Shown: positions 17,658-46,910, numbered from the stretch's first letter. The stretch is 64,000 nt of DNA from an uncultured Gemmatimonadales bacterium (GCA_963708135.1 OY970192.1:704001-768000); one strand, 5' to 3'. Notes: generated by a model not told the origin, from the letters alone. A program made the numbers and translations.

Positions 17658-17760
17658 ACGGCGGCAACTGCTTACGGCGGCACTACGGACACCGGCACTA
17701 CGTACACCGGCACTACAGACGGCGGCACTACGTACACCGGCACTACAGACGGCGGCAATA
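17658..17760 (+). repeat. 15-bp minisatellite (ACRSCGGCACTACNN), about 6-7 units
   Basis: Units start at 17674, 17689, 17704, 17719, 17734 and 17749, with a degenerate unit at 17658. Confidence 0.9.
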
Positions 17761-20666: not shown

Positions 20667-20853
20667 GCGGACTTTTCTGCACGTCCGCCACCCCTGCTGG
20701 CGCTCGCCACGCACTTTGGGCCGCTGTGCGGACCCAACTCCCCTCGCGTCGGCCGCCGCCATCGGCGCGAGCGGAGTTTGGTCCGCATGGCGGCTTTTTC
20801 TGCGCGAGCGACTCGCCGGCCCTCGTCGATCTGGAAGTTTGATCCGGCCCCGC
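20667..20853 (-). repeat. Palindromic dispersed repeat, copy A (solo, reverse orientation)
   Basis: Arms 20719-20748 and 20766-20795, 17-nt loop; the flanks match copies C and D as reverse complement. Confidence 0.85.
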
Positions 20854-26776: not shown

Positions 26777-27021
26777 GGCGCTCCCGCCCCTCGAGCGCAG
26801 GTCGCCCCGTCCGCGGGCGCGGGTCCAGCCCCTGGCGCCGCGGAACGTCGGTCTCGGGCCGAACGCCGGCCAGCGGCCGGGAGTTGGGCCCGCCGCCGAC
26901 TGGTGGGCCCGCGGCCGACCGGTGGCCCGCCGCCGACTGGTGGGTCCGCGGCCGACCGGTGAGTTCGCGGCCCGTCGTCGCTCCGTGGCGGGGTCCTCGC
27001 CAGGTTGGAACAGGGCGGCGG

Positions 27022-27205
27022 CCGGACATTTCTGCGCTCCCGTCGCCTTCCCGCGGACGCTCTCGCACTTATGGTCGCCATGCGGCCCAAAGTCCCCGTG
27101 GGTCCGCGCCGCCGCCGGCGCGACCGGACTTTGGTCCGGATAGCGGCCACTTCTGCAAGGGCGGCTCCGCACCCCGGGACGATCGGAGAGTTTGGTCCGC
27201 TCCCG
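27022..27205 (-). repeat. Palindromic dispersed repeat, copy B (solo, reverse orientation, degenerate)
   Basis: Arms about 27073-27102 and 27119-27148, 16-nt loop; flanks GGACATTTCTGC and GAGTTTGGTCCGC. Confidence 0.85.
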
Positions 27206-27209
27206 GGGC

Positions 27210-27700
27210 GCCCGCTCCACCGCGCGGCCGCCCCGCCGCGCGGCGCCCCCGCCGCGCGGGCGCCCCCGCCACGCGGCCGCTCCCAGCGCGCGGCTGCCCC
27301 GCCGCGCGGCCGCCCCCAGCGCGCGGCCGCCCCCACCGCGCGGGCGCCCCCGCCACGCGGCCGCTCCCAACCGCGCGGCCGCTCCGCCGCGCGGCCGCTC
27401 CCAACCGCGCGGCCGCCCCCGCCGCGCGGCCGCTCCCAACCGCGCGGCCGCCCCCGCCGCGCGGCCGCTCCCAGCGCGCGGCCGCCCCCACCGCGCGGCC
27501 GCCCCCGCCACGCGGCCGCTCCCAACCGCGCGGCCGCTCCGCCGCGCGTGCGCCCCCGCCGCGCGGGCGCCCCCGCCGCGCGGCCGCTCCCAGCGCGCGG
27601 CCGCCCCCGCCGCGCGGCCGCCCCTGCCCACCCCGCCGCTCCCAGCGCGCGGCCGCCCCCGCCGCGCGGCCGCGCCTGCCCCGCCCCGCCGCGCGCTCGT
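27210..27700 (+). repeat. Near-pure GC minisatellite built on CGCGCGGCCGC(C/T)CCC units
   Basis: Many tandem GCGGCCGC-containing units with small variants. Confidence 0.9.
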
Positions 27701-28629: not shown

Positions 28630-30387
28630 ATGCCGCGCAGCCTCTTCTCGTCGTCGCCCTCGGGCTCGGCTTTCCGTTCTGGCTCGCCTTCGCCTGGCTC
28701 TACGAGATCACCCCGAGGGTCTCAGGCGGGAGAGCGAGGTCGATCCGGAGACCTCCCTCACCCACCGCACCGGGAAGCGGCTGGACCGCTGGATCATCGG
28801 GGTCCTGGCGCTCGCCGTCGTGGTGCCGCTGACCAACACCTTCGTCTGGCACGGTGGGGCGGGGCTCGCGCGCGGCACCTCGCCGGAGGCGCCCTCGAGC
28901 GCACCCGGCGTGGCGGCCGCCGCCGAGCCGGTGCCGCCGCATTCGATCGCGGTGCTGCCGTTCGTGAACGAGTCCTCGGACCGGGAGCAGGAGTACTTCG
29001 CCGACGGCATCGCGGAGGATCTGCTGGACCTGCTGGCGCGGGTGCCGGCACTGCGGGTGGCGGCGCGCACGTCGTCGTTCGCGTTCAAGGGGAAGGCGGT
29101 GAAGGTCCAGGAGATCGCACGACAGCTCCAGGTGGCGAACGTGCTGGAGGGCTCGGTGCGGAAGGCGGGCGGCCGGGTGCGCATCAGCGCGCAGCTCGTG
29201 CACGCGGCCAACGGCTACGAGGTGTGGTCGCAGACGTGGGACCGCAAGCTGGACGACGTCTTCGCCATCCAGGACGAGATCCCCGCGATGTGGTCGGGCA
29301 GCTCCAGGTGAGGCTGCTCGGGGCGACGCCGACGGTCCGCGAGACCGACCCCCGCGCGTACGCGCTCTACCTGCAGGGGCGCGAGCTGAGCCGCCGGTTG
29401 ACGCCCGAAGCGCTCACGCGCTCCGACTCGCTCCTCCGTCAGGTGCTCGCGATCGACCCCCGTTACGCCCCCGCCTGGACGAGGCTGGCCGCCAACTTCG
29501 CCCACGAGGCGAACATCGGGGTGGTGTCGAACGAGGAGGGCTATCGCCGGGCGCGCGAGGCGGCCGGGAAAGCGCTCGCAATCGATCCCGGCTACGCGCC
29601 CGCCCATGGAGAGCTCGGCTACATCGCAAGGTCCGCGGGCGACCTGGCCGGCGCGGCCCGGGAGCTGGAGCGGGCGCTCGCGCTCGACGCTACGGATCCC
29701 GATGTCCTGGGGAACAGCGCCGTGCTGCTCGCGTCGCTCGGGCGGCTGAAGGAGGCGATCGCGCTCCAGGAGTACGTCGTCGCACGCGATCCGGTGAACT
29801 TGAGCAGGCTTTCCAACCTGGGCTATACGTATGTCAGGGACGGCCGCTACGACGACGCGATCGCCCGCCTGCGGACGGGGCTGAGCCTGAGCCCCGGCTT
29901 TGGGGCCGCGCACTTTCTGATCGGCGAGGCACTGCTGCTGAAGGGGAACGCACCGGCGGCGCTTGGGGAGATGCAGCGGGAGACGAGCGAGTCCTGGCGC
30001 CTGGGGGGCCTGGCCATGGCCGACCACGCGCTCGGTCGCGAGGCGCAGTCCGATTCCGCGCTCGCGGCGCTCGTCCGCAAGTACCCGAAGGACGCGCCGT
30101 ACAACATCGCCTACGTCCACGCGTTCCGCGGGCAGCCGGACCAGGCGTTCGCCTGGCTGGACAGGGCGGTCGAGTACGGCGACCCCGGGCTTGCGGAGAT
30201 CCCGGCGGAGCCCCTCTTCGAGCGGATCCACTCCGACCCGCGCTGGCTGCCGTTCCTGCGCCGGATCGGCAAGGCGCCCGAGCAACTGGCGAGGATCCAC
30301 TTCCAGGTCGATCTGCCGCAGAGCGGGGACACGGCCACTGCCGCGGCGCGGTCCGCCCCGCCCCCGGTGGCGGCGGCCTCGGAGTGA
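28630..30387 (+). pseudogene. Disrupted TolB-N/TPR membrane protein, paralogue of 45054..46910
   Basis: MPRSLFS versus MRRSLFS, then about 42 codons missing relative to the paralogue; 1-nt losses near 28722 and 29283. SIAVLPFVNESSD..YFADGIAED and the TPR region align with the paralogue. Confidence 0.85.
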
Positions 30388-30388
30388 A

Positions 30389-32878
30389 TTGACCGGCCTG
30401 ATCCTCCGCGGCCTCCGCCGAAGTCCCGGCCTGACGGCCACGGCCGTGCTCTGCCTGGCCGTCGGCATCGGCGCGACCACGACCATGGCGGGAATCGTGG
30501 ACGTGCTGCTCTTCCGGCCGCCGGCGCACGTGCGGGATGCCGCCCACGTCGCCGAGCTCCACTTCGACTTCGTGTTCCCCGGCTCCACGCGGCACGTGCC
30601 CTCCATGATCGGCCAGGGTCTGGTCTACTCCCATTTCCTGCGGCTGCACGGCGACCTCCACTCGCTCGACCGGGTGGCCGGCTTCCACAAGGCCGAGCTC
30701 TCGCTCGGGCGGGGCGAGGCGGCCCGGCCGGTCCAGGCCGGCTTCGTCACGGGCGGCTTCTTCCCCCTGCTCGGCGTACGCCCCGGCCTCGGGCGGCTCA
30801 TCGCGAGCGACGGCACGGACGCCGCCGAGGCCGGCGCGGCGCCGGTCGTCCTCTCCGACGACCTCTGGCGCACGCGCTTCGGCCGCGACCCCTCGATCCT
30901 CGGCCGGCGCATCAGGGTGGGGCGGGGGAGCTACACGGTGGTCGGCATCACGCCCGCGGGGTTCCGCGGCCCTGAGCCGCTCCACCCGACGGAGCTCTGG
31001 CTGCCGATGGGCGCGGCCGAGCGAGAGCTGTACGACGGCGACCGCGAGGCCTTCACCGAGCAGAGCGAGGGGCTGGTCCGGGTGCTTGGACGGCTCCGGC
31101 CGGGCGTGCCCGAGCGGCGCGTGGCGGCGGAGGCTGCTGGAATCGTGCGGGGCGCCTACGTCGCCTACTTCGGGGAGCGCTTCGGGGACACCCGCGTCGT
31201 TGCCGCGCTCGCGCCGATCATCCCGGGCCTGGCCGGCGCGCGGGGCGGAGACGCGGCGGTGGCGCTCTGGCTCGCGGCCGTGGCGGCCGTAGTGCTGCTG
31301 ATCGCGTGCGCCAACGTGGCGGGGCTGCTGCTCGTGCGCGCGGCCGAGCGGCGGCGGGAGGCGGCGATCCGGCTCGCCCTGGGCGCCACGCCGTGGCGGC
31401 TCGCGCGGCTGTTCCTGGCCGAGGCGCTCGTGCTGGCCGCGGCCGGCGGGGTGCTCGGGCTACTCCTGCGGCAGTGGGGCGGCAGCGCGGTGCGCGCGTT
31501 CCTGCTGCCGCAGCTCGACGCGGCGCCCGGACCGCTCGATCCGCGCGTGCTCGGCGTGGCGACGCTGGTCACGCTGGCCACCGGCATCCTGTGCGGCGCG
31601 GCCCCGGGGGCGCACGCCTGGCGCCGCGACCTCGCCGGCGCGGTCGCCGGCGCGCGCGGCCGCGGCGGGCCGGCCCGCCAGCGGGCGCAGCGGGCGCTGC
31701 TCGTCGGGCAGGTCGCACTCGCGGTGGCCCTTGTGTCGGGCGCGGCGGCGTTCCTCACGAGCTGGTGGCACGTGCGCCGGCTTCCGCTCGGCTTCGCGCC
31801 GGCGCGCGTGCTGGTCGGCCGCATGCCGCTCGACGCGCTCGGCTACGACACGCCCGAGGAGACGGCCGCGTACGAGCGGATGCTCGCGCGGGTGCGCGCG
31901 CTCCCCCGCGTGCGCGAGGCGAGCCTGGCGGTGGCGCCGCCCTTCGTCGCCAGGCGGTACGCCGCTGTCGAGATCCCGGGCGTGGACAGAGACGCCGTGC
32001 GTCAGGCCTCGCGGGTGGCGCTCGGCCCGGAGCTCCACGCCGTCGGCCCCGGCTTCTTCCGCGCCACGGGCACGCGGATCCTCCGGGGGCGGGCGTTCGA
32101 GGCGGGAGACCGGGCGGGCGCGCGCGACGTCGCCATCGTGAACGAGCGGATAGCCCGAACCTTCTGGCCGGCCGGCGACGCGCTCGGCCGCTGCATCCGG
32201 GTCCACCGCCCCGGCCCGCCCGGCGCCGGGCCGCCGTGCAGCCGGATCGTCGGCATCGCCGCCGACACGCGCAGCGTGGGTCTGCGCGAGGCGCCCGACC
32301 TCCAGGTCTATCAGCCGCTTGCCCAACGCCCCGACCTCGCCCCCACGGTGCTCCTCGTGCGCACCGTGGGCGACCCGGCCGCCCTCGCCGCCGCCGCGCG
32401 CCGCGCCATGCAGGGCGCCGGGCCGGCGCTTCCCTTCGCCGATGTCCGGCCGTGGAGCACGTATCTCGATCCCGAAACCCGCCCGTGGCGCCTGGGCGCC
32501 TCCATGTTCACGCTGTTCGGCGCCATGGCTCTGGCGCTCGCGGCCCTCGGCCTCTACGCCGTCTTCTCCTACGCCGTCTCCCGCCGCGCCCCCGAGCTCG
32601 GCATCCGCGCCGCGCTTGGCGCCCGGGCGGCCGACCTGCTGGGGCTGGTCGTGCTGGACGGGCTCCGCCTGGCCGCGGCGGGCGTGGTCATCGGCGTCGC
32701 GCTGGCGCTGGCGCTCGGCCGGCTCCTGGCGGGTCTGCTCCTGGATGTGCACGCCGCCAGCCCCGCCCTGCTCGGCGCCGCCGCCGCGCTCGTGCTTGCC
32801 ATCACGGCGCTCGCCGTCGCCGTCCCCGGGCGGGGCGCGGCGCGGGCGGATCCCGCGCAGGTGATGCGGGAGGAGTGA
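30389..32878 (+). CDS. ADOP-family duplicated ABC permease (MacB_PCD/FtsX x2)
   Basis: LRRSPGLT..LAVGIGATT, LLIACANVAGLLLVRA..RRREAAIRLALGA, YAVSRRAPELGIRAALGA, AARADP. Confidence 0.9.
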   Translation: MTGLILRGLRRSPGLTATAVLCLAVGIGATTTMAGIVDVLLFRPPAHVRDAAHVAELHFDFVFPGSTRHVPSMIGQGLVYSHFLRLHGDLHSLDRVAGFHKAELSLGRGEAARPVQAGFVTGGFFPLLGVRPGLGRLIASDGTDAAEAGAAPVVLSDDLWRTRFGRDPSILGRRIRVGRGSYTVVGITPAGFRGPEPLHPTELWLPMGAAERELYDGDREAFTEQSEGLVRVLGRLRPGVPERRVAAEAAGIVRGAYVAYFGERFGDTRVVAALAPIIPGLAGARGGDAAVALWLAAVAAVVLLIACANVAGLLLVRAAERRREAAIRLALGATPWRLARLFLAEALVLAAAGGVLGLLLRQWGGSAVRAFLLPQLDAAPGPLDPRVLGVATLVTLATGILCGAAPGAHAWRRDLAGAVAGARGRGGPARQRAQRALLVGQVALAVALVSGAAAFLTSWWHVRRLPLGFAPARVLVGRMPLDALGYDTPEETAAYERMLARVRALPRVREASLAVAPPFVARRYAAVEIPGVDRDAVRQASRVALGPELHAVGPGFFRATGTRILRGRAFEAGDRAGARDVAIVNERIARTFWPAGDALGRCIRVHRPGPPGAGPPCSRIVGIAADTRSVGLREAPDLQVYQPLAQRPDLAPTVLLVRTVGDPAALAAAARRAMQGAGPALPFADVRPWSTYLDPETRPWRLGASMFTLFGAMALALAALGLYAVFSYAVSRRAPELGIRAALGARAADLLGLVVLDGLRLAAAGVVIGVALALALGRLLAGLLLDVHAASPALLGAAAALVLAITALAVAVPGRGAARADPAQVMREE

Positions 32879-34402: not shown

Positions 34403-34475
34403 ACTGCGGCACGACCGACTGCGGCACGACCAACTGCGGCACGACCAACTGCGGCACGACCAACTGCGGCAGACC
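34403..34475 (+). repeat. 15-bp minisatellite ACTGCGGCACGACCR, about 5 units
   Basis: Units at 34403, 34418, 34433, 34448 and 34463. Confidence 0.95.
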
Positions 34476-36973: not shown

Positions 36974-37135
36974 ATGCCGGGCTGTGTCCGTCGGGCCCGA
37001 TGCGCTGTCGTGGCGCTGATCCTCGCGTTGGGCTCCGGCGCAGGGGTACACGCCGCGCAGGCGAAGGTCCAGGCGCAGGTGGCGCGATACCCGGGTCGCG
37101 TGGTGGGCGCGTGCAGCGTGAACCCGCTGGGCCGG
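36974..37135 (+). pseudogene. Collapsed remnant of a secreted amidohydrolase_2-like gene
   Basis: Signal-like AVVALILALGSGAGVHAA is followed directly by AKVQAQVARYPGRVVGACSVNPL, which resembles an internal amidohydrolase motif, then low-complexity DNA. Confidence 0.4.
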
Positions 37136-37230
37136 GGCGCACGGGACGCTCGGGCGGGGTCGCCCGGGCGGGCCGAGGGACGCGTGTGGGCCGGGCGGCG
37201 CCGTGGGCGGGAGGCAGCGCGCGCACCGGG

Positions 37231-37434
37231 TCGGACGGTGTCGCGGGCGGACCAAACTCCCAGATCGCCGAAGGGGCCGAAGCGCCCTTGCAGAAATGGC
37301 CGCTATGCGGACCAAAGTCCCGTCGCGCTGGTGATGGCGGCGAACGCGAGGGGACTTTGGTCCGCTCGGCGGCCCAAACTGCGAGAGGGCTGCCGAGGGG
37401 GCGACGATCGTGCAGAAAGGTCCGGGCGCCGCCT
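37231..37434 (+). repeat. Palindromic dispersed repeat, copy C (left flank of the DUF559 gene)
   Basis: Arms 37298-37327 and 37345-37374; loop CTGGTGATGGCGGCGAA. Confidence 0.95.
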
Positions 37435-37498
37435 AAGGCAGCGACGCGACCGCTCCGCTCCCCCTGCGCGGCCGAGGGCCCCATCCACGAAATCTCGT

Positions 37499-37564
37499 CC
37501 CATCCCGCCATGGAACTGTCCCATCCCGCCATGGAGCTGCCCCGTCTCGCCATGGAGCTGCCCC
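37499..37564 (+). repeat. 21-bp tandem repeat x3 (CCCATCCCGCCATGGARCTGY)
   Basis: Three consecutive units, the third slightly diverged. Confidence 0.9.
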
Positions 37565-37639
37565 AGACGGCGACGCAGGGTAGACGCGTGGTGGGCTGTG
37601 GCAGGCACGAGGAGGGGCACCGGAGCGAGGATACTCTCC

Positions 37640-38545
37640 ATGGACACGGAACTGGAGCGTCGCCTGTGGGAGCTGGCAGCGCGGCAGCACGGGGTAGTGG
37701 CTCGCGGGCAGATGCTGGAGCTCGGCATGCGACCGGGCGCGATCGGACGGCGGGCGCGGCGCGGCGGGCTGCGTCGCCTGCACAGGGGTGTGTACCAGGT
37801 GGGGCCGGTGCTTGCGCCGTCGGGGCGGCTGCTCGCCGCGACGCTGGCGTGCGGTCGACAGGGGATCGTGGCCGACTGGAGCGCCGCCGTCGTCTGGCGC
37901 GTGCGCGAAGGGTCCGACGGCGAGCCCGTCCACATCCTGCTCGTGGGCGGCGGCGGGCGGAGCCGCCCGGGGATCCGGGTGCGACGCGTCCGCCGGCTCG
38001 ACCCCGACGAGCGCACGTGCGTGGACGGCATTCCCGTGACGACGCCGGCGCGGACCCTGCTCGACCTCGCCGCGGTCGCCGGGGCGGGCGAGCTGGAGCG
38101 CGCCGTCGCCAGGGCCGAGCGTGAGCGGCTCGTGAGCCGCGACCAGCTGCGGGCGATGCTGCTTCGGGGCGCCGGCCGGCCGGGAGCGCCGGCGCTCAGG
38201 GCCCTGCTGTCGCAGGCCGGCGGCCCGGCGCTGACGCGCTCGGAGGCGGAGGCGCTGTTCCTGAAGCTGATCCGGGAAGCGTCGCTGCCGCTCCCCGAGA
38301 CGAACGTGGTCGTCGGCGGCTACGAGCTCGACTTCCTCTGGCGCAAGCAGCGGATCGCCGTCGAGGTGGACGGCTACCGCTACCACGGCACGCGACGTCG
38401 CTTCGAGGCCGACCGTCGCCGCGCGACCCGCCTGGCGGCGCTCGGGATCCAGGTCATCCCGGTCACGTACCGGCAGATCGTCGAGCAGAGAACCGCGACG
38501 GCCGTGCAGATCGGGAATGCGCTGCTGCGGGCGGAGCTGCGGTGA
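37640..38545 (+). CDS. AbiEi-type wHTH plus DUF559 (Vsr-like PD-(D/E)xK) endonuclease-domain protein
   Basis: LAARQHGVVAR..LRRLHRGVY (AbiEi_4); TTPARTLLDLA; RSEAE..LPLPETN..DFLW..IAVEVDG..YH..DRRR (DUF559). Confidence 0.9.
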   Translation: MDTELERRLWELAARQHGVVARGQMLELGMRPGAIGRRARRGGLRRLHRGVYQVGPVLAPSGRLLAATLACGRQGIVADWSAAVVWRVREGSDGEPVHILLVGGGGRSRPGIRVRRVRRLDPDERTCVDGIPVTTPARTLLDLAAVAGAGELERAVARAERERLVSRDQLRAMLLRGAGRPGAPALRALLSQAGGPALTRSEAEALFLKLIREASLPLPETNVVVGGYELDFLWRKQRIAVEVDGYRYHGTRRRFEADRRRATRLAALGIQVIPVTYRQIVEQRTATAVQIGNALLRAELR

Positions 38546-38580
38546 ACGGAGAACGCGGGGTGGAGGGGGGCGGACCGGCG

Positions 38581-38809
38581 CGGACCGGAGCCGACCGGAG
38601 GGACGCCGCGGGGAGGACCGGGCCGTGCGGCGTCGCGAAGCGGGCCGGGGCCGACCGGAGCGGACCGGAGCCGACCGGAGGGACGCCGCGGGGAGGACCG
38701 GGCCGTGCGGCGTCGCGAAGCGGGCCGGGGCCGACCGGAGCGGACCGGAGCCGAACGGAGGGACGCCGCGGGGAGGACCGGGCCGTGCGGCGTCGCGAAG
38801 CGGGCCGGG
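38581..38809 (+). repeat. 80-bp tandem repeat, about 2.9 units
   Basis: Near-identical units start at 38581, 38661 and 38741. Confidence 0.95.
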
Positions 38810-38827
38810 ACACGTGGCGGAGCCGGA

Positions 38828-39026
38828 TCGAAGGCGTCGCGGGGCGGACCAAACTCCCACATCGTCGAGGCGCGCGCGGCGCGGCCGCAGAAGTGGCCGC
38901 TATGCGGACCAAAGTCCCCTCGCGTTCGCCGCCACAACCGGCGCGAGGGGACTTTGGTCCGCATAGCGGCCTAAACTGCGAGAGGGCTGCCGAGGGGGCG
39001 ACGATCGTGCAGAAAGGTCCGGGCGC
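38828..39026 (+). repeat. Palindromic dispersed repeat, copy D (right flank of the DUF559 gene; perfect arms, flipped loop)
   Basis: Perfect 30-bp inverted repeat 38895-38924 / 38942-38971; loop TTCGCCGCCACAACCGG. Confidence 0.95.
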
Positions 39027-39069
39027 GGCCGCCTCGACGTGCCCAGGCGACGGCTCGCGGCGGGCCAGC

Positions 39070-39230
39070 CGTGGATGGACCGGCCCCCGCGGATGGACCG
39101 GCCGCCGCGGATGCACCGGCCAGCGGCGGATCCACCGGCCGGCCGCGGATCCACCGGCCGGCCGCGGATCCACCGGCCGGTCGCGGATGCACCGGCCGAC
39201 CGCGGATGCACCGGCCGCGCGCGGATGCGG
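39070..39230 (+). repeat. 18-bp minisatellite (GCGGATSCACCGGCCNNN), about 9 units
   Basis: Repeated GGAT(G/C)(C/G)ACCGGCC cores. Confidence 0.9.
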
Positions 39231-39254
39231 CCGCCACGGCGGCTCGCGCCTTCC

Positions 39255-41489
39255 TCACCGTCCCTCACCCGCCGCGTAGCCGCCGGCCAGATCCCGATAC
39301 GCCCGCACCAGCTCCAGGAACCCGTGCCGGTAGCCGTCCCCGTCCTCGCCCAGACCCGCCCGGGCGAGGGCCAGCACCTGGTCGGCGGTGATGGAGCCGC
39401 GGTGCTCGGAGTGGCGGAGCAGCATGCCGAAGCCGGCGACGGCGGCGGCGAAGCGGAAGTCGGCGGACGGCCGCCCCGGCGCGGCGGCGACGCGGGAGCC
39501 CGAGCCGACGCGGGAGCCCGAGCCGACGCGGGAGCCCGAGCCGACGCGGGAGCCCGAGCCGCCCCCGGGAAACTCCACCGAGCCGTCCCGCGACGCCTCG
39601 CCCGCGACGTCGCGGATGCCGCGCGTCATGAGGCGGCTCGTCGTCCCGTGCGGCGCCTTGTAGCGCACCTTCACGAACGCCAGCTCGCGGCCGCCGCTCG
39701 GGTCGGCGAGGCGGCCGGGGGCGCGGTAGCGGAGCGGGTCCACCGGCGCGGGAACCGCGGTGGAGTCGGGGCAGGCGGCGTCGCGCCCGGAGGCGGCGTC
39801 GTGCCCGGAGGCGGAATCGCGCCCGGAGGCGGCGTCGTGCCCGGAGGCGGAATCGCGCCCGGAGGCCGCGTCGCGCCCCGCGGCCGCGTCGTGGCCGCAG
39901 GCCACATCGTCGCCGGAGGCGCCATCGTCGCCTGAGAGGGTGAGCTCGTAGAGCGCCGTCACGGTGTGCCCGGCGCCGAGCTCCCCCGCGTCCTTCCTGT
40001 CGTTGTTGAAGTCCTCCGGCGCGAGCAGGCGGTCCTCGTAGCCGAGCAGGCGATAGCTCCGCACGCGCGCGGGGTTGAACTCGACCTGGACCTTCACGTC
40101 CTTCGCGACGGTGACGAGCGTCGCGCCCATCTGGGCGACGAGGACCTTACGGGCTTCCTGCAGGCCGTCGATGTAGGCGTAGTTGCCGTTCCCGTACCTG
40201 GCGAGCTGCTCCATCTTCTCGTTCTGCAGGTTGCCGGTGCCGAAGCCGAGGACGGTCAGGAAGGTGCCGCCTTCGCGCTCCCGCTCGATGAGGCGGACCA
40301 TGGCGGCATCGCTCGACTCGCCGACGTTGAAATCGCCGTCGGTGGCGAGGATGACGCGGTTGTTGCCGCGGGGGTCGAAGCTCCTCCGCGCCACCTCGTA
40401 GGCCAGCCGCAGCCCCTCGCCGCCAGCGGTCGAGCCGCCCGCCTGCAGACGCTCGATAGCCTCCATGATGAGGTCCTTCCGGTCGCCGGGGGTGGGCCCC
40501 AGGACGAGGCCGGCCGCGCCCGCGTAGACGACGATGGCCACGCGGTCCACGGCCCGGAGCTGCGCGACGAGCAGCCGCAGCGACGCCTTCACCAGCGGCA
40601 GCTTGTCGGGCTCGTCCATGGAGCCGGAGACGTCGAGCAGGAAGACCAGGTTGGCGGGCGGCAGGTCGCTCGTGGCGATCGGGCGGCTGGCCAAGCCGAT
40701 GCGGAGCAGCCGGTGCTTCGGCGTCCAGGGCGCGCGGCCCACCTCGGTGGTGATGGCCACCGGGTCGTCGCCTCGCGGGGTCGGGTAGTCGTACGGGAAG
40801 TAGTTGACCAGCTCCTCGATGCGCACGGCGTCGACGGGCGGCAGCCGATGCTCGCGCAGCAGGAAGCGACGCACGTTGCTGTACGAGGCGGGGTCCACGT
40901 CGATCGCGAAGGTCGAGAGCGGGTGGTCGGCGACGGCGCGGAAGCCGTTCTCCTCGATGTGCCCGTACTGCTCGCGGTCCACTGGCGGCCGGTACCAACC
41001 CGCCGCGTCCCGGCGCACGCCGCCCGTTGCCGTCTGCGCGTACATCGGTGAAGGCGACGGCGCGGCCGCGACCGCCCGTCCCGCCGCCGACATCGCCGCG
41101 TCCGTCACCACCAGCTCGTTGAGCGACACCGTCGTCTGCCGGAGCCGGAAATCGGCGGTCACGGAATCCGCCGCCGCGCCGGACGGCACCCGCACCACCA
41201 GGCGCGCCTCGTTGTAGCCGAGCAGCGTCGCCACCAGCGTGAGCCGGCCCGAGGCGACGTCGCCGCGCGGCACCTCCAGCGCGTACCGCCCGCCCGCGTC
41301 CGAGAGCGCGCCGGCGCGGGTGCCGGCGACGTGGATCTGCGCCCCCGCGAGCGGGCTGCCGTCACTCGCGCGGACGACCCGCCCGCTCACGCGCACCGCC
41401 TCGCCCGCGGGCCGGGCGAGGGCGAGGGAGGTGGCGGCGAGAAGGGCGGCCAGGGGGAGGGAGAGGATCGAGCGTCGGGTGCGTCGCAT
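39255..41489 (-). CDS. CarboxypepD_reg plus vWA/YfbK (DUF3520)-type secreted protein
   Basis: Signal peptide; VSGRV..PLAGAQI; PLSTFAIDVDPASY, VRIEELVNYF, MIDAS DVSGSM, ILATDGDFNVG, AKDVKVQVEFNP, DFRFAAAVAGFG. Confidence 0.92.
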   Translation of the reverse strand: MRRTRRSILSLPLAALLAATSLALARPAGEAVRVSGRVVRASDGSPLAGAQIHVAGTRAGALSDAGGRYALEVPRGDVASGRLTLVATLLGYNEARLVVRVPSGAAADSVTADFRLRQTTVSLNELVVTDAAMSAAGRAVAAAPSPSPMYAQTATGGVRRDAAGWYRPPVDREQYGHIEENGFRAVADHPLSTFAIDVDPASYSNVRRFLLREHRLPPVDAVRIEELVNYFPYDYPTPRGDDPVAITTEVGRAPWTPKHRLLRIGLASRPIATSDLPPANLVFLLDVSGSMDEPDKLPLVKASLRLLVAQLRAVDRVAIVVYAGAAGLVLGPTPGDRKDLIMEAIERLQAGGSTAGGEGLRLAYEVARRSFDPRGNNRVILATDGDFNVGESSDAAMVRLIEREREGGTFLTVLGFGTGNLQNEKMEQLARYGNGNYAYIDGLQEARKVLVAQMGATLVTVAKDVKVQVEFNPARVRSYRLLGYEDRLLAPEDFNNDRKDAGELGAGHTVTALYELTLSGDDGASGDDVACGHDAAAGRDAASGRDSASGHDAASGRDSASGHDAASGRDAACPDSTAVPAPVDPLRYRAPGRLADPSGGRELAFVKVRYKAPHGTTSRLMTRGIRDVAGEASRDGSVEFPGGGSGSRVGSGSRVGSGSRVGSGSRVAAAPGRPSADFRFAAAVAGFGMLLRHSEHRGSITADQVLALARAGLGEDGDGYRHGFLELVRAYRDLAGGYAAGEGR

Positions 41490-45053: not shown

Positions 45054-46910
45054 ATGCGTCGTAGCCTTTTCTCGGAGCTGAAGCGCCGGAACGTGTGGCG
45101 CGCGGCGGCGCTGTACGCGGCCGGCGCGTGGCTGCTCGTGCAGGTGGCGACGCAGGTGTTCCCCTTCCTGGACGTGCCGAACTGGGTTGTGCGCTGGGTG
45201 ATCGTGGCGGTGCTGGTCGGCTTCCCGTTCTGGATCGCGTTCGCGTGGCTGTACGAGATCACGCCCCAGGGTATCAGGCGCGAGAGCGACGTCGCCACCG
45301 AGGAGTCGGTCGCGCACCGGACGGGCCGCACGCTGGACCGCTGGATCATCGGCATACTCTCGGTGGCCGTGGTGCTGCTGGTGACCAATCTGTTAATGTG
45401 GCACCGGGGCGGCGCGGGGAGCGGGGCCGGCGGCGCAACGGCGGCGGCCGGCGGCGCCACGAGCGGGAGCGGCGGTGCGCCGGCCGTGCCCGCGCGCTCG
45501 ATCGCGGTGCTGCCGTTCGTGAACGAGTCGTCGGACCCGCAGCAGGGGTACTTCGCGGACGGGATCTCGGAGGATCTGCTCGACCTGCTGACCAAGATCC
45601 CGGCGCTGCGGGTGGCGGCGCGGACGTCGTCGTTCTCCTTCAAGGGGCAGAACCTCGATGTGCCGGAGATCGCGCGGCGGCTGAACGTGGCGAACGTGCT
45701 CCAGGGGTCGGTCCGGCGGGCGGGCGACGAGGTTCGGATCTCGGTGCAGCTCGTCCACGCGGCCGACGGCTATCAGGTGTGGTCGCAGAGGTGGGACCGC
45801 AAGCTCACCGACGTGTTCGCCATCCAGGACGAGATCGCGCGGGCCGTGGCCAGGCAGCTGCAGGCGAAGCTGCTGGGGGCGGCGCCGCGGGCGCAGCCGA
45901 CCGACCCGGGGGCGTACGCGCTCTTCCTCCAGGCGCGGGAGTTGGGCCGGCAGCAGCGGCCCGAGGCGATGCTGCGCTCGGACTCGCTCTACCGGCGGGT
46001 TCTCGCGGCGGATCCCCGCTACGCGCCGGCCTGGACGGAGCTGGCCCGCAACTTCGTGCACGAAACGAACATCGGGATGGTGCCGAACGACGAGGGGCTG
46101 AAGCGGGCGCGCGAGGCGGCCGGGAAGGCGCTCGCGCTCGATCCCGACTACGCGCCGGCCCACGGCATCCTCGGCTACATCGCCACGTCGGACGGCGACC
46201 TCACGGGGGCGGCCCGCGAGCTGGAGCGAGCGCTCGCGCTCGACCCGACCGATCTCGACGTGCTGGGAAGGAGCGCGTCGCTGCTCGAGTCGCTGGGCCG
46301 GCTGAAGGAGGCGATCGCGCTCCAGGAGTATGTCGTCGCCCGCGACCCGGTGAACGTGAGCCAGGTGTTCAACCTGGGCCTCTACTCCCTCTGGGCCGGC
46401 CGCTACGACGACGCCATCGCCCGCCTACGGACGGTGCTGAGCCTGAGCCCGGGCCGCGGCAGCGCCCACCACTCGATCGGCGAGGCGCTGCTGCTGAAGG
46501 GGTACGCACCGGCGGCGCTCGCGGAGATGCGGCAGGAGACGAGCGAGATGTGGCGCATGATCGGCATGCCCATGGTCTATCACGCGCTCGGGCGGAAGGC
46601 GGCGTCCGACTCCGCACTCGCGGCGCTCATCCGCAAGTACGACAAGGAGGCGCCGTACAACATCGCCTACGTCTACGCCTACCGGGGCCAGGCGGACCAG
46701 GCCTTCGCCTGGCTGAACAAGGCCAATGAGTACGGCGACCCGGGGCTCTCCGAGATCACCGATGAGCCCCTCTTCGACAGGATCCGCTCCGACCCGCGCT
46801 GGCTGCCGTTCCTGCGCCGCATCGGCAAGGCGCACGAGCAGCTCGAGCGGATCCAGTTCCACGTCGCGGTTCCGGGGACGGGGGAGGCAGCGGCGGCCGC
46901 GGCGGAGTAG
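45054..46910 (+). CDS. TolB-N/TPR membrane protein (adenylate-cyclase-associated architecture)
   Basis: ELKRRNV..Y...W TM hairpin; SIAVLPFVN.S.D..YFADGISED; DVFAIQDEIA; TPRs; DPRW. Confidence 0.9.
   Translation: MRRSLFSELKRRNVWRAAALYAAGAWLLVQVATQVFPFLDVPNWVVRWVIVAVLVGFPFWIAFAWLYEITPQGIRRESDVATEESVAHRTGRTLDRWIIGILSVAVVLLVTNLLMWHRGGAGSGAGGATAAAGGATSGSGGAPAVPARSIAVLPFVNESSDPQQGYFADGISEDLLDLLTKIPALRVAARTSSFSFKGQNLDVPEIARRLNVANVLQGSVRRAGDEVRISVQLVHAADGYQVWSQRWDRKLTDVFAIQDEIARAVARQLQAKLLGAAPRAQPTDPGAYALFLQARELGRQQRPEAMLRSDSLYRRVLAADPRYAPAWTELARNFVHETNIGMVPNDEGLKRAREAAGKALALDPDYAPAHGILGYIATSDGDLTGAARELERALALDPTDLDVLGRSASLLESLGRLKEAIALQEYVVARDPVNVSQVFNLGLYSLWAGRYDDAIARLRTVLSLSPGRGSAHHSIGEALLLKGYAPAALAEMRQETSEMWRMIGMPMVYHALGRKAASDSALAALIRKYDKEAPYNIAYVYAYRGQADQAFAWLNKANEYGDPGLSEITDEPLFDRIRSDPRWLPFLRRIGKAHEQLERIQFHVAVPGTGEAAAAAAE

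Follow-up and report, generated by a model that had tools for sequence, protein, structure and literature searches.

AbiEi-Vsr genes of an uncultured Gemmatimonadales bacterium are paired with private repeat arrays and share a promoter-like motif with transformation genes

We find that each AbiEi-Vsr gene in the genome of an uncultured Gemmatimonadales bacterium is single-copy, locus-stable and co-evolving with its own private arrays of about 180 bp, which carry six half-sites on a grid of about 30.5 bp. The AbiEi-Vsr genes also carry a promoter-like motif of transformation genes. On balance we consider it probable that gene and arrays form a two-part selfish or semi-domesticated system, RAYT/REPIN-like in function and built from other parts, with duplex binding, nicking and competence timing as its proposed steps. 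Binding, cutting and movement of the arrays by the protein are inferred.

Results

F1 is a fixed-length array of six half-sites

The window analysed here is a stretch of 64,000 nucleotides of a complete genome of 5.45 Mb (97.7% complete), in which we called 4343 genes with a rough gene finder of our own. It contains an AbiEi-Vsr gene between two copies of a repeat, F1, and two further copies that lack the gene (Table 1). The original prediction had located all four copies, and all four are present where it placed them. The two copies flanking the gene are direct repeats, as it had said, with 148/179 bases identical. The two gene-less copies exist as well; their orientation had to be corrected, since they lie on the strand opposite to the flanking copies. 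Palindrome arms of 30 bp had been described for each flanking copy. These are perfect in the downstream copy (30/30) and match at 26/30 in the upstream copy, and the palindrome is not the whole repeat, as the hairpin makes up the middle third of a 179-bp array.

We found that F1 consists of three units of about 61 bp with six half-sites alternating in direction and symmetry axes at about 29, 59, 90, 121 and 151. In each half-site a GCGG(A)CC-like box comes first and an A/T triplet follows. The two junctions are palindromes with a 3-bp centre, and the terminal half-sites are imperfectly inverted. An iterated DNA profile, whose scores are therefore self-trained, gave 20 matches at 18 sites genome-wide (E 4e-48 to 9e-11). 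The 18 full-length copies measure 178-181 bp, and the 11 of exact length have a mean identity of 68%. Among the 4343 called genes, the window gene alone has F1 within 600 nt on both sides. The 18 sites and this unique two-sided bracketing confirm that F1 is real and beyond chance.

The gene contexts of F1 are convergent in 7 cases, divergent in 2 and tandem in 10, and across all families 110/111 array copies are intergenic. Inspection of the 30-nt array flanks revealed no target-site duplication, which old copies could have lost. Rfam returned eight matches on 37000-39300, all far below gathering scores. The BLASTN comparison that had been proposed for F1 found a match in 0/30 relatives; related repeats were found by the profile model alone.

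Table 1. Features of the window (window position = genome position minus 704000)
Feature	Position	Strand	Description
AbiEi-Vsr gene	37640-38545	+	301 aa; Pfam AbiEi_4 and DUF559 above cut-off
Upstream F1 array	37247-37424	+	three ~61-bp units, six alternating half-sites
Downstream F1 array	38844-39021	+	direct repeat of upstream array
Central unit of downstream F1 array	38895-38971		perfect 30-bp inverted repeat, 17-nt loop
Solo F1 array	20668-20846	-	between convergent genes
Solo F1 array	27023-27200	-	between convergent genes, tandem repeats on both sides
Promoter-like motif	37496-37582	+	score 39.3, matrix trained on other genomes
21-bp tandem repeat	37499-37565		amplified window motif
80-bp tandem repeat x3	38567-38809		ends 35 bp from downstream array
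19-bp tandem repeat x8.8	39063-39228		just past downstream array
17-bp tandem repeat x27	27220-27684		starts 20 bp from solo array at 27023
19-bp tandem repeat x4.7	26885-26972		other side of solo array at 27023
15-bp tandem repeat	17658-17757 and 34403-34475		contains CGGCACTAC
Two 18-bp tandem repeats	39488-39561 and 39773-39921		in frame, inside downstream VWA/YfbK gene
TolB/TPR-like genes (by eye)	28700-30400 and 45250-46900		paralogous, 71-84% DNA identity, 16.5 kb apart

The window gene encodes a predicted fusion of AbiEi and Vsr-type domains

The window gene is free-standing between two intact-looking genes, one for a SAM-dependent methyltransferase, in divergent orientation, and one for a VWA protein, convergent with it. 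As modelled by AlphaFold (pLDDT 93, 100-sequence alignment), its product is a complete AbiEi fold fused to a Vsr/EDxHD-type nuclease in which the predicted catalytic residues are invariant. The predicted structure resembles the entire AbiEi antitoxin 6y8q over residues 1-197 (Z 13.4, rmsd 4.4, 184 aligned) and, over residues 199-300, 3hrl (Z 13.5), I-Bth0305I 3r3p (Z 13.4) and Vsr 1cw0 (Z 11.1). All 100 aligned homologues, which were selected among the best 120 of 4567, have D231, E242, D244, H249 and D258 unchanged. In a weak sequence match (E 0.43), D231 and H249 fall on D196 and H213 of I-Bth0305I, the positions mutated as D196A and H213A in its crystal (PMC3239194). A homodimer prediction for the window protein scored 0.07.

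There are at least 4567 homologues of the window protein, and the closest are from Gemmatimonadota. In the closest full-length one (L060/L077), a tandem repeat at 597-690 adds about 30 residues, in frame, to the AbiEi domain. At E 1e-10 we found no homologue in 72,556 plasmids and none in 50,697 phages, and viral contigs gave three partial matches only. The gene had been called an orphan. This is not the case, as it is one of seven full-length paralogues in the host genome, which are 44-56% identical to it. That no AbiEii toxin or transposase stands beside it was borne out, and the host genome is without PF08843 and PF01797 matches.

Six of the seven paralogues adjoin a repeat family of their own

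We found that 6/7 AbiEi-Vsr paralogues adjoin their own repeat family and that the paralogue flanks match non-overlapping sets of loci. The families are F1 (18 sites), F2 (23 sites), F3 (5 sites, a tandem of 61-bp units), F4 (30 sites, including a subfamily that adjoins paralogue 1681494) and F6 (28 sites). The seventh paralogue has an internal stop and no repeat family. While mostly unrelated in sequence, the families are alike in geometry: F1, F2, F4 and F6, which are unrelated at the blastn level, have five axes each at a spacing of about 30.5 bp, and they combine a near-fixed length (176-183 bp) with a mean identity of 60-86%. F2, F3 and F4 bracket their own paralogue and also bracket 2, 0 and 1 other genes, respectively, whereas F6 and the F4 subfamily are one-sided at theirs.

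Arrays also form a composite layout around unrelated cargo, seen in two F2 cases and one F4 case in the host genome. At L162 (G004:C1:10830-15490) the unrelated cargo is a tricorn-like protease gene (by eye), with an array on either side, both oriented alike. Different families co-clustered in one spacer in 4 cases against 4.3 expected, and co-clustering was set aside. A 13-copy "family" upstream of paralogue 1681494 was dropped, as it lies inside a gene (PadR-like by eye).

No paralogue adjoins the remaining dispersed families, which have 42, 16 and 14 members and include several IS ends. Two are GC-rich and palindromic and end in short tandem runs, one at G000:C1:539820 and about 41 other sites, the second at C1:3230675 and 13 others; neither adjoins an AbiEi-Vsr paralogue. 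A near-identical 170-bp MITE with terminal inverted repeats and CTAG ends occurs at G000:C1:1792967 and 8 other sites.

Repeat families co-vary with the protein tree

The original prediction proposed testing whether the palindromes follow the protein phylogeny. Our data support this: family profiles match DNA beside the closest kin of the cognate protein. In a tree of 78/84 homologue loci (6 short fragments omitted), the F1 profile matched flanks at the proteins ranked 1, 2 and 5 of 77 by distance from the cognate protein, and the F4 profile at ranks 1 and 2 of 77. F2 is weakly supported (ranks 2 and 19 of 77), and the F6 matches are scattered over the tree (ranks 1, 2, 6, 8, 13, 18, 28, 36 and 63 of 77). 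The F3 profile had no match outside the host genome. Such rank tests overstate significance because kin share labels.

We also searched from the repeat side, with an F1 model trained on 11 own copies together with L060 and L034. It matched 6/150 genomes of the order, all in the host's family. In two genomes outside the training set, G077 and G141, the matches bracket the genome's best homologue in direct orientation. Since G095, L060 and L077 come from one organism, only the solo copies of G095 count as new. G109 gave one weak match to the model and no homologue with the query used.

Bracketing is not a consistent feature of the homologues, contrary to what had been expected. The two flanks have a repeat in common in 14/68 homologue loci, versus 13/142 control genes with wide spacers. 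The best alignment in the two-sided loci is direct in 11/14 and inverted in 3/14, in arrays that are quasi-palindromic. A blind six-site score exceeded the 99th percentile of 260 control flanks in 28/84 homologue loci. Because this detector missed known arrays (F2, F4, L060, L034), its negatives mean little, including those at 12 actinobacterial or unassigned metagenome loci, none of which passed it. No repeat was found by any of three tests at 42/84 homologue loci, several of them at contig ends. Broken or partial loci make up 15/84, and the number of matches per genome within one family ranges from 0 to 9.

F1 conserves boxes and spacing rather than pairing

The repeat had been proposed to act as a hairpin or cruciform substrate. 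Our data speak against this for F1 and F2, which lack compensatory pairing within copies, and many copies fold weakly. Within-copy complementarity of F1 about the central axis is 0.543, versus 0.551 when arms are shuffled between copies, and the observed pairing was reached by 245/300 shuffles for F1 and 295/300 for F2. F4 shows an excess of within-copy pairing (1/300 shuffles) in a set that mixes subfamilies, and F6 is marginal (14/300). When six F1 copies were folded, z was -5 to -9 for the two flanking the gene and -0.1 to -3.0 for the remaining four. What is conserved in F1 is boxes and spacing rather than pairing. Given this lack of compensatory pairing, F1 is better explained as an array bound in double-stranded form than as REP-like hairpins.

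A guide-RNA reading of the arrays was rejected: the variable segments of different copies are homologous to one another, and array orientation bears no relation to the genes nearby. We made no use of strand bias, for which four tests were made on a noisy skew curve; leading-strand copies number 7/18 for F1 and 16/28 for F4, and F2 (21/29) and F6 (21/28) are nominally biased on that curve.

The nuclease gene stays at one locus while array presence varies

Array presence differs between the congeners of genus g5. In G004 the upstream gene, one array and the downstream gene follow each other and the nuclease gene is absent there. G077 has the same upstream gene, followed by array, nuclease gene, array and the contig end. 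G141 has array, nuclease gene and array, then the downstream gene of G004 (90% identical), and in G156 the nuclease gene and one partial array precede that same downstream gene. The simplest reading is that the nuclease gene has been retained at one locus and that recombination between direct copies removed it in G004; this comparison offers too few diagnostic bases to show a chimera. G004 holds 8 full-length arrays, and no F1-clade gene was found in its 95%-complete assembly.

A solo array lies between glnA and glnS (names by eye) in G004 and is missing in G077 and G141. We found no precise empty site at this interval, where the congeners without the array carry other genes; the array is polymorphic rather than a clean empty site. 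A different AbiEi-Vsr paralogue stands directly before glnS in G046 (L219, G046:C2:563756-564631). With the G004 solo array, the G046 paralogue and the varying genes of the congeners, the glnS-side interval is a possible insertion hot spot.

Tandem repeats cluster around the arrays

We found tandem repeats within 100 bp of 58/103 arrays, compared with a mean of 17/101 control positions (length-matched array-free spacers, 20 draws, maximum 25). A length-stratified count agrees (61/97 vs 162/797), and 0/9 copies of the ordinary CTAG-ended MITE have tandem repeats nearby. The periods run from 5 to 280 bp, and some of the repeats include part of an array. In the window, both arrays flanking the gene and the solo array at 27023 have tandem repeats nearby (Table 1). 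We read these as repair scars; alternatively, arrays favour spacers that were already unstable. The crowding of arrays by tandem repeats is new here. Elsewhere in the window there are tandem repeats inside the downstream VWA/YfbK gene, and a 15-bp tandem repeat at two positions that belongs to a family dispersed over about 23 intergenic loci.

AbiEi-Vsr genes and transformation genes share a promoter-like motif

The motif has the consensus GTCCC-N6/7-CCATGG-N4-GCCCC, then a -10-like box. CCATGG-N4-GCCCC occurs upstream in sense in 40/79 homologues, compared with 4/79 in antisense, 0/72 downstream and 25/1000 random genes. We built a matrix from 34 sites in other genomes, with the host's own paralogues held out of training. 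It finds the motif within 700 nt before 6/7 own paralogues (for the seventh at about -780) and before 3/500 random genes; its count of 52/79 homologues includes the 34 training sites and is partly circular. In the genome there are 50 matches above 17 bits versus 0-6 for shuffled matrices. Sites of the motif include G000:C1:975599, 954011, 2053808, 2676064 and 4547599. Fifteen sites lie 46-55 nt before a start codon, a spacing as for leaderless transcripts, and this position points to a promoter function.

The motif precedes 21/25 comM genes of the family, with none in antisense and none downstream; another 2 of the 27 genes had no upstream DNA and were left out. The genes verified behind it are those for YifB/ComM and YraN (above cut-off), for a PilB/GspE-type ATPase, a RecQ-family helicase and YfiO, two ssb, the gene that precedes comEC (miaB-comEC), an integron-like integrase, IS91/ISCR transposases, and Uma2, four-helix-bundle and toxin-antitoxin-type genes. 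By eye only, it also stands before a prepilin-like operon and a ComF-like gene. YraN and ComM are described as resolving the transformation D-loop (PMC13663708). Since dprA is without the motif (best 6.8) and recA scores weakly (8.9), we call it a candidate competence promoter. An array lies between motif and gene in 9/12 scored upstream cases; in the window the upstream array ends about 70 bp before the motif. That AbiEi-Vsr genes share this motif with comM, yraN and miaB-comEC is new here, and our literature search found no paper on a competence promoter for this Gemmatimonadota-related family, for which the motif is the first candidate.

Discussion

In the two-part system that we favor, the AbiEi part would bind the array as double-stranded DNA, with up to six protomers, and bend it; protomers would form pairs spanning the 3-bp junctions, in the manner of AbiEi at its operator. 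The Vsr-type domains would then nick DNA at or beside the array, mainly while competence genes are on. Repair of the nick by strand slippage, template switching or recombination with incoming single-stranded DNA could produce local tandem duplications, and the same repair may on rare occasions place an array at a new intergenic site without a target-site duplication. The array adjoining the gene would double as an autoregulatory operator. Recombination between two direct flanking copies could remove the gene and leave one solo copy, while the gene itself would rarely move. The age of the F1 copies, judged by their mean identity of 68%, counts against this explanation. So do the lack of a precise empty site, the 42/84 homologue loci at which no test found a repeat, the scattered F6 matches together with weak support for F2 and no outside match for F3, the 8 arrays of G004 beside which no F1-clade gene was found, and, for the competence part, the motif scores of dprA and recA.

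Four other readings have to be weighed against it. A host-serving role is unlikely in our view. The protein would then be a nuclease of transformation or repair that loads at chromosomal arrays in fixed places, to process nearby heteroduplex or D-loops for instance, and selection on the host rather than the arrays' own copying would maintain them. The motif shared with comM and yraN, whose products act on the transformation D-loop (PMC13663708), would fit such a role, as would the locus stability of the genes in congeners and the lack of matches in the plasmid and phage collections. Against it are the 0-9 matches per genome within one family, the several parallel private systems in one cell, the broken or partial loci (15/84) and the finding that the motif also stands before apparent riders on the regulon, namely IS91/ISCR transposases, an integrase and toxin-antitoxin-type genes. 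We give a little less credence again to an array-binding repressor whose nuclease has an unrelated job and whose solo copies arise passively by duplication and gene conversion. The arrays do match the geometry of an AbiEi operator, lie between motif and gene, a roadblock position, in most scored upstream cases, and show no compensatory pairing. The solo copies, however, have no orientation or position preference typical of operators (as the F1 gene contexts show), arrays lie solely downstream of genes at L060, L034 and L022, and sharp units of fixed length at 5-30 sites per family need a copying process.

A hairpin mechanism of the kind originally envisaged now appears improbable. Here the array would be cut, as RAYT cuts REP, after extrusion or exposure as a single-stranded hairpin, and the Vsr domain would read conserved mismatches. 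The strong folding of the two gene-flanking copies, the overall two-fold symmetry of the array with its conserved A-A/T-T mismatched triplets, the pairing excess of F4 and the marginal one of F6 all speak for it. On the other side, shuffles reach the pairing of F1 and F2 in most cases, the other four F1 copies fold weakly, the F4 set mixes subfamilies and AbiEi is reported to bind duplex DNA (PMC7319586). Finally, the genome does have IS91/ISCR transposases and an integron-like integrase that carry the same motif, and one of these enzymes might move MITE-like arrays with the nuclease gene as a hitch-hiker. We regard this as very improbable: all four transposase genes checked lie more than 70 kb away from the nearest array, the integrase lies 5 kb from one, and the five families each adjoin a different paralogue and track its phylogeny.

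A broader claim, which we put forward tentatively and do not expect to hold in full, is that the arrays constitute a new class of non-autonomous mobile DNA. Their own AbiEi-Vsr nickase would recognise them as duplex DNA and copy them by way of host recombination, timed by the competence regulon, and transformation would spread or protect them. Natural transformation normally purges inserts. If true, nature would have diversified these protein-array pairs into orthogonal nickase systems, each sequence-specific, and the five pairs in one genome would be a ready specificity matrix. At least 4567 homologues labelled "AbiEi antitoxin" or "very-short-patch-repair endonuclease", which have no known job, would gain a testable substrate and timing. 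The RAYT/REPIN strategy would then have evolved a further time, out of a toxin-antitoxin repressor and a nuclease of the repair type, and some of the dispersed repeats and tandem-repeat clusters of GC-rich genomes would have a possible cause. We found no description of such a system in the openly available literature searched.

The layout is RAYT/REP-like, as the original prediction had it: one nuclease gene with a cognate dispersed family, paralogue-specific families, co-variation, differences between congeners and invariant catalytic residues. RAYT genes are described as locus-stable (bioRxiv 10.1101/2021.07.10.451892). In what is reported of RAYT/REP(IN) systems (PMC2817692, PMC3733652, bioRxiv 10.1101/2021.07.10.451892) we likewise see a single-copy, locus-stable nuclease gene with cognate extragenic repeats that co-evolve, several gene-repeat pairs per genome, absence from plasmids and phages and absence of a clear target-site duplication. 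The nuclease class differs, as had also been foreseen: Pfam and structure give AbiEi plus a Vsr-type PD-(D/E)xK domain in a genome without PF01797, whereas RAYT is an HUH (Y1) tyrosine transposase. The flanking copies are direct or one-sided here and inverted for RAYT; the unit is a six-site array of 176-183 bp rather than a GTAG/CGTC hairpin of 20-40 bp; and the F1 consensus has neither a GTAG/CGTC terminal tag nor compensatory pairing. Families number 5-30 sites here and hundreds for REP, and the motif shared with transformation genes is a further difference. Because enzyme, orientation and repeat structure do not match, we do not count the system as a member of RAYT/REPIN.

AbiEi binds two 23-bp inverted repeats that are 3 bp apart and bends DNA (PMC7319586). 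The likeness to AbiEi and Rv2827c antitoxins covers the whole two-domain fold (Z 13.4 over 184 residues) and the operators, in which inverted half-sites are 3 bp apart and of which multi-repeat forms exist (PMC7319586). Unlike type IV toxin-antitoxin AbiE, the system has a fused nuclease, a genome without AbiEii and arrays dispersed far from the gene. It differs from an IS-derived MITE in that no target-site duplication was seen in 30-nt flanks and no transposase stands beside the F1 gene, and from Vsr very-short-patch repair in that the neighbour of the window gene is a Methyltransf_25/TPMT-type methyltransferase and not a dcm-type DNA cytosine methylase. In contrast to EDxHD homing endonucleases, the gene lies outside any intron or intein, with no Rfam family at gathering level, AbiEi replaces the NUMOD repeats and the partner is a dispersed array. 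The nuclease fold itself is like that of the EDxHD homing endonuclease I-Bth0305I and of Vsr (Z 13.4 and 11.1), with catalytic Asp and His, and I-Bth0305I, as described in PMC3239194, likewise carries an N-terminal DNA-binding module on a Vsr-like domain and is a selfish precedent.
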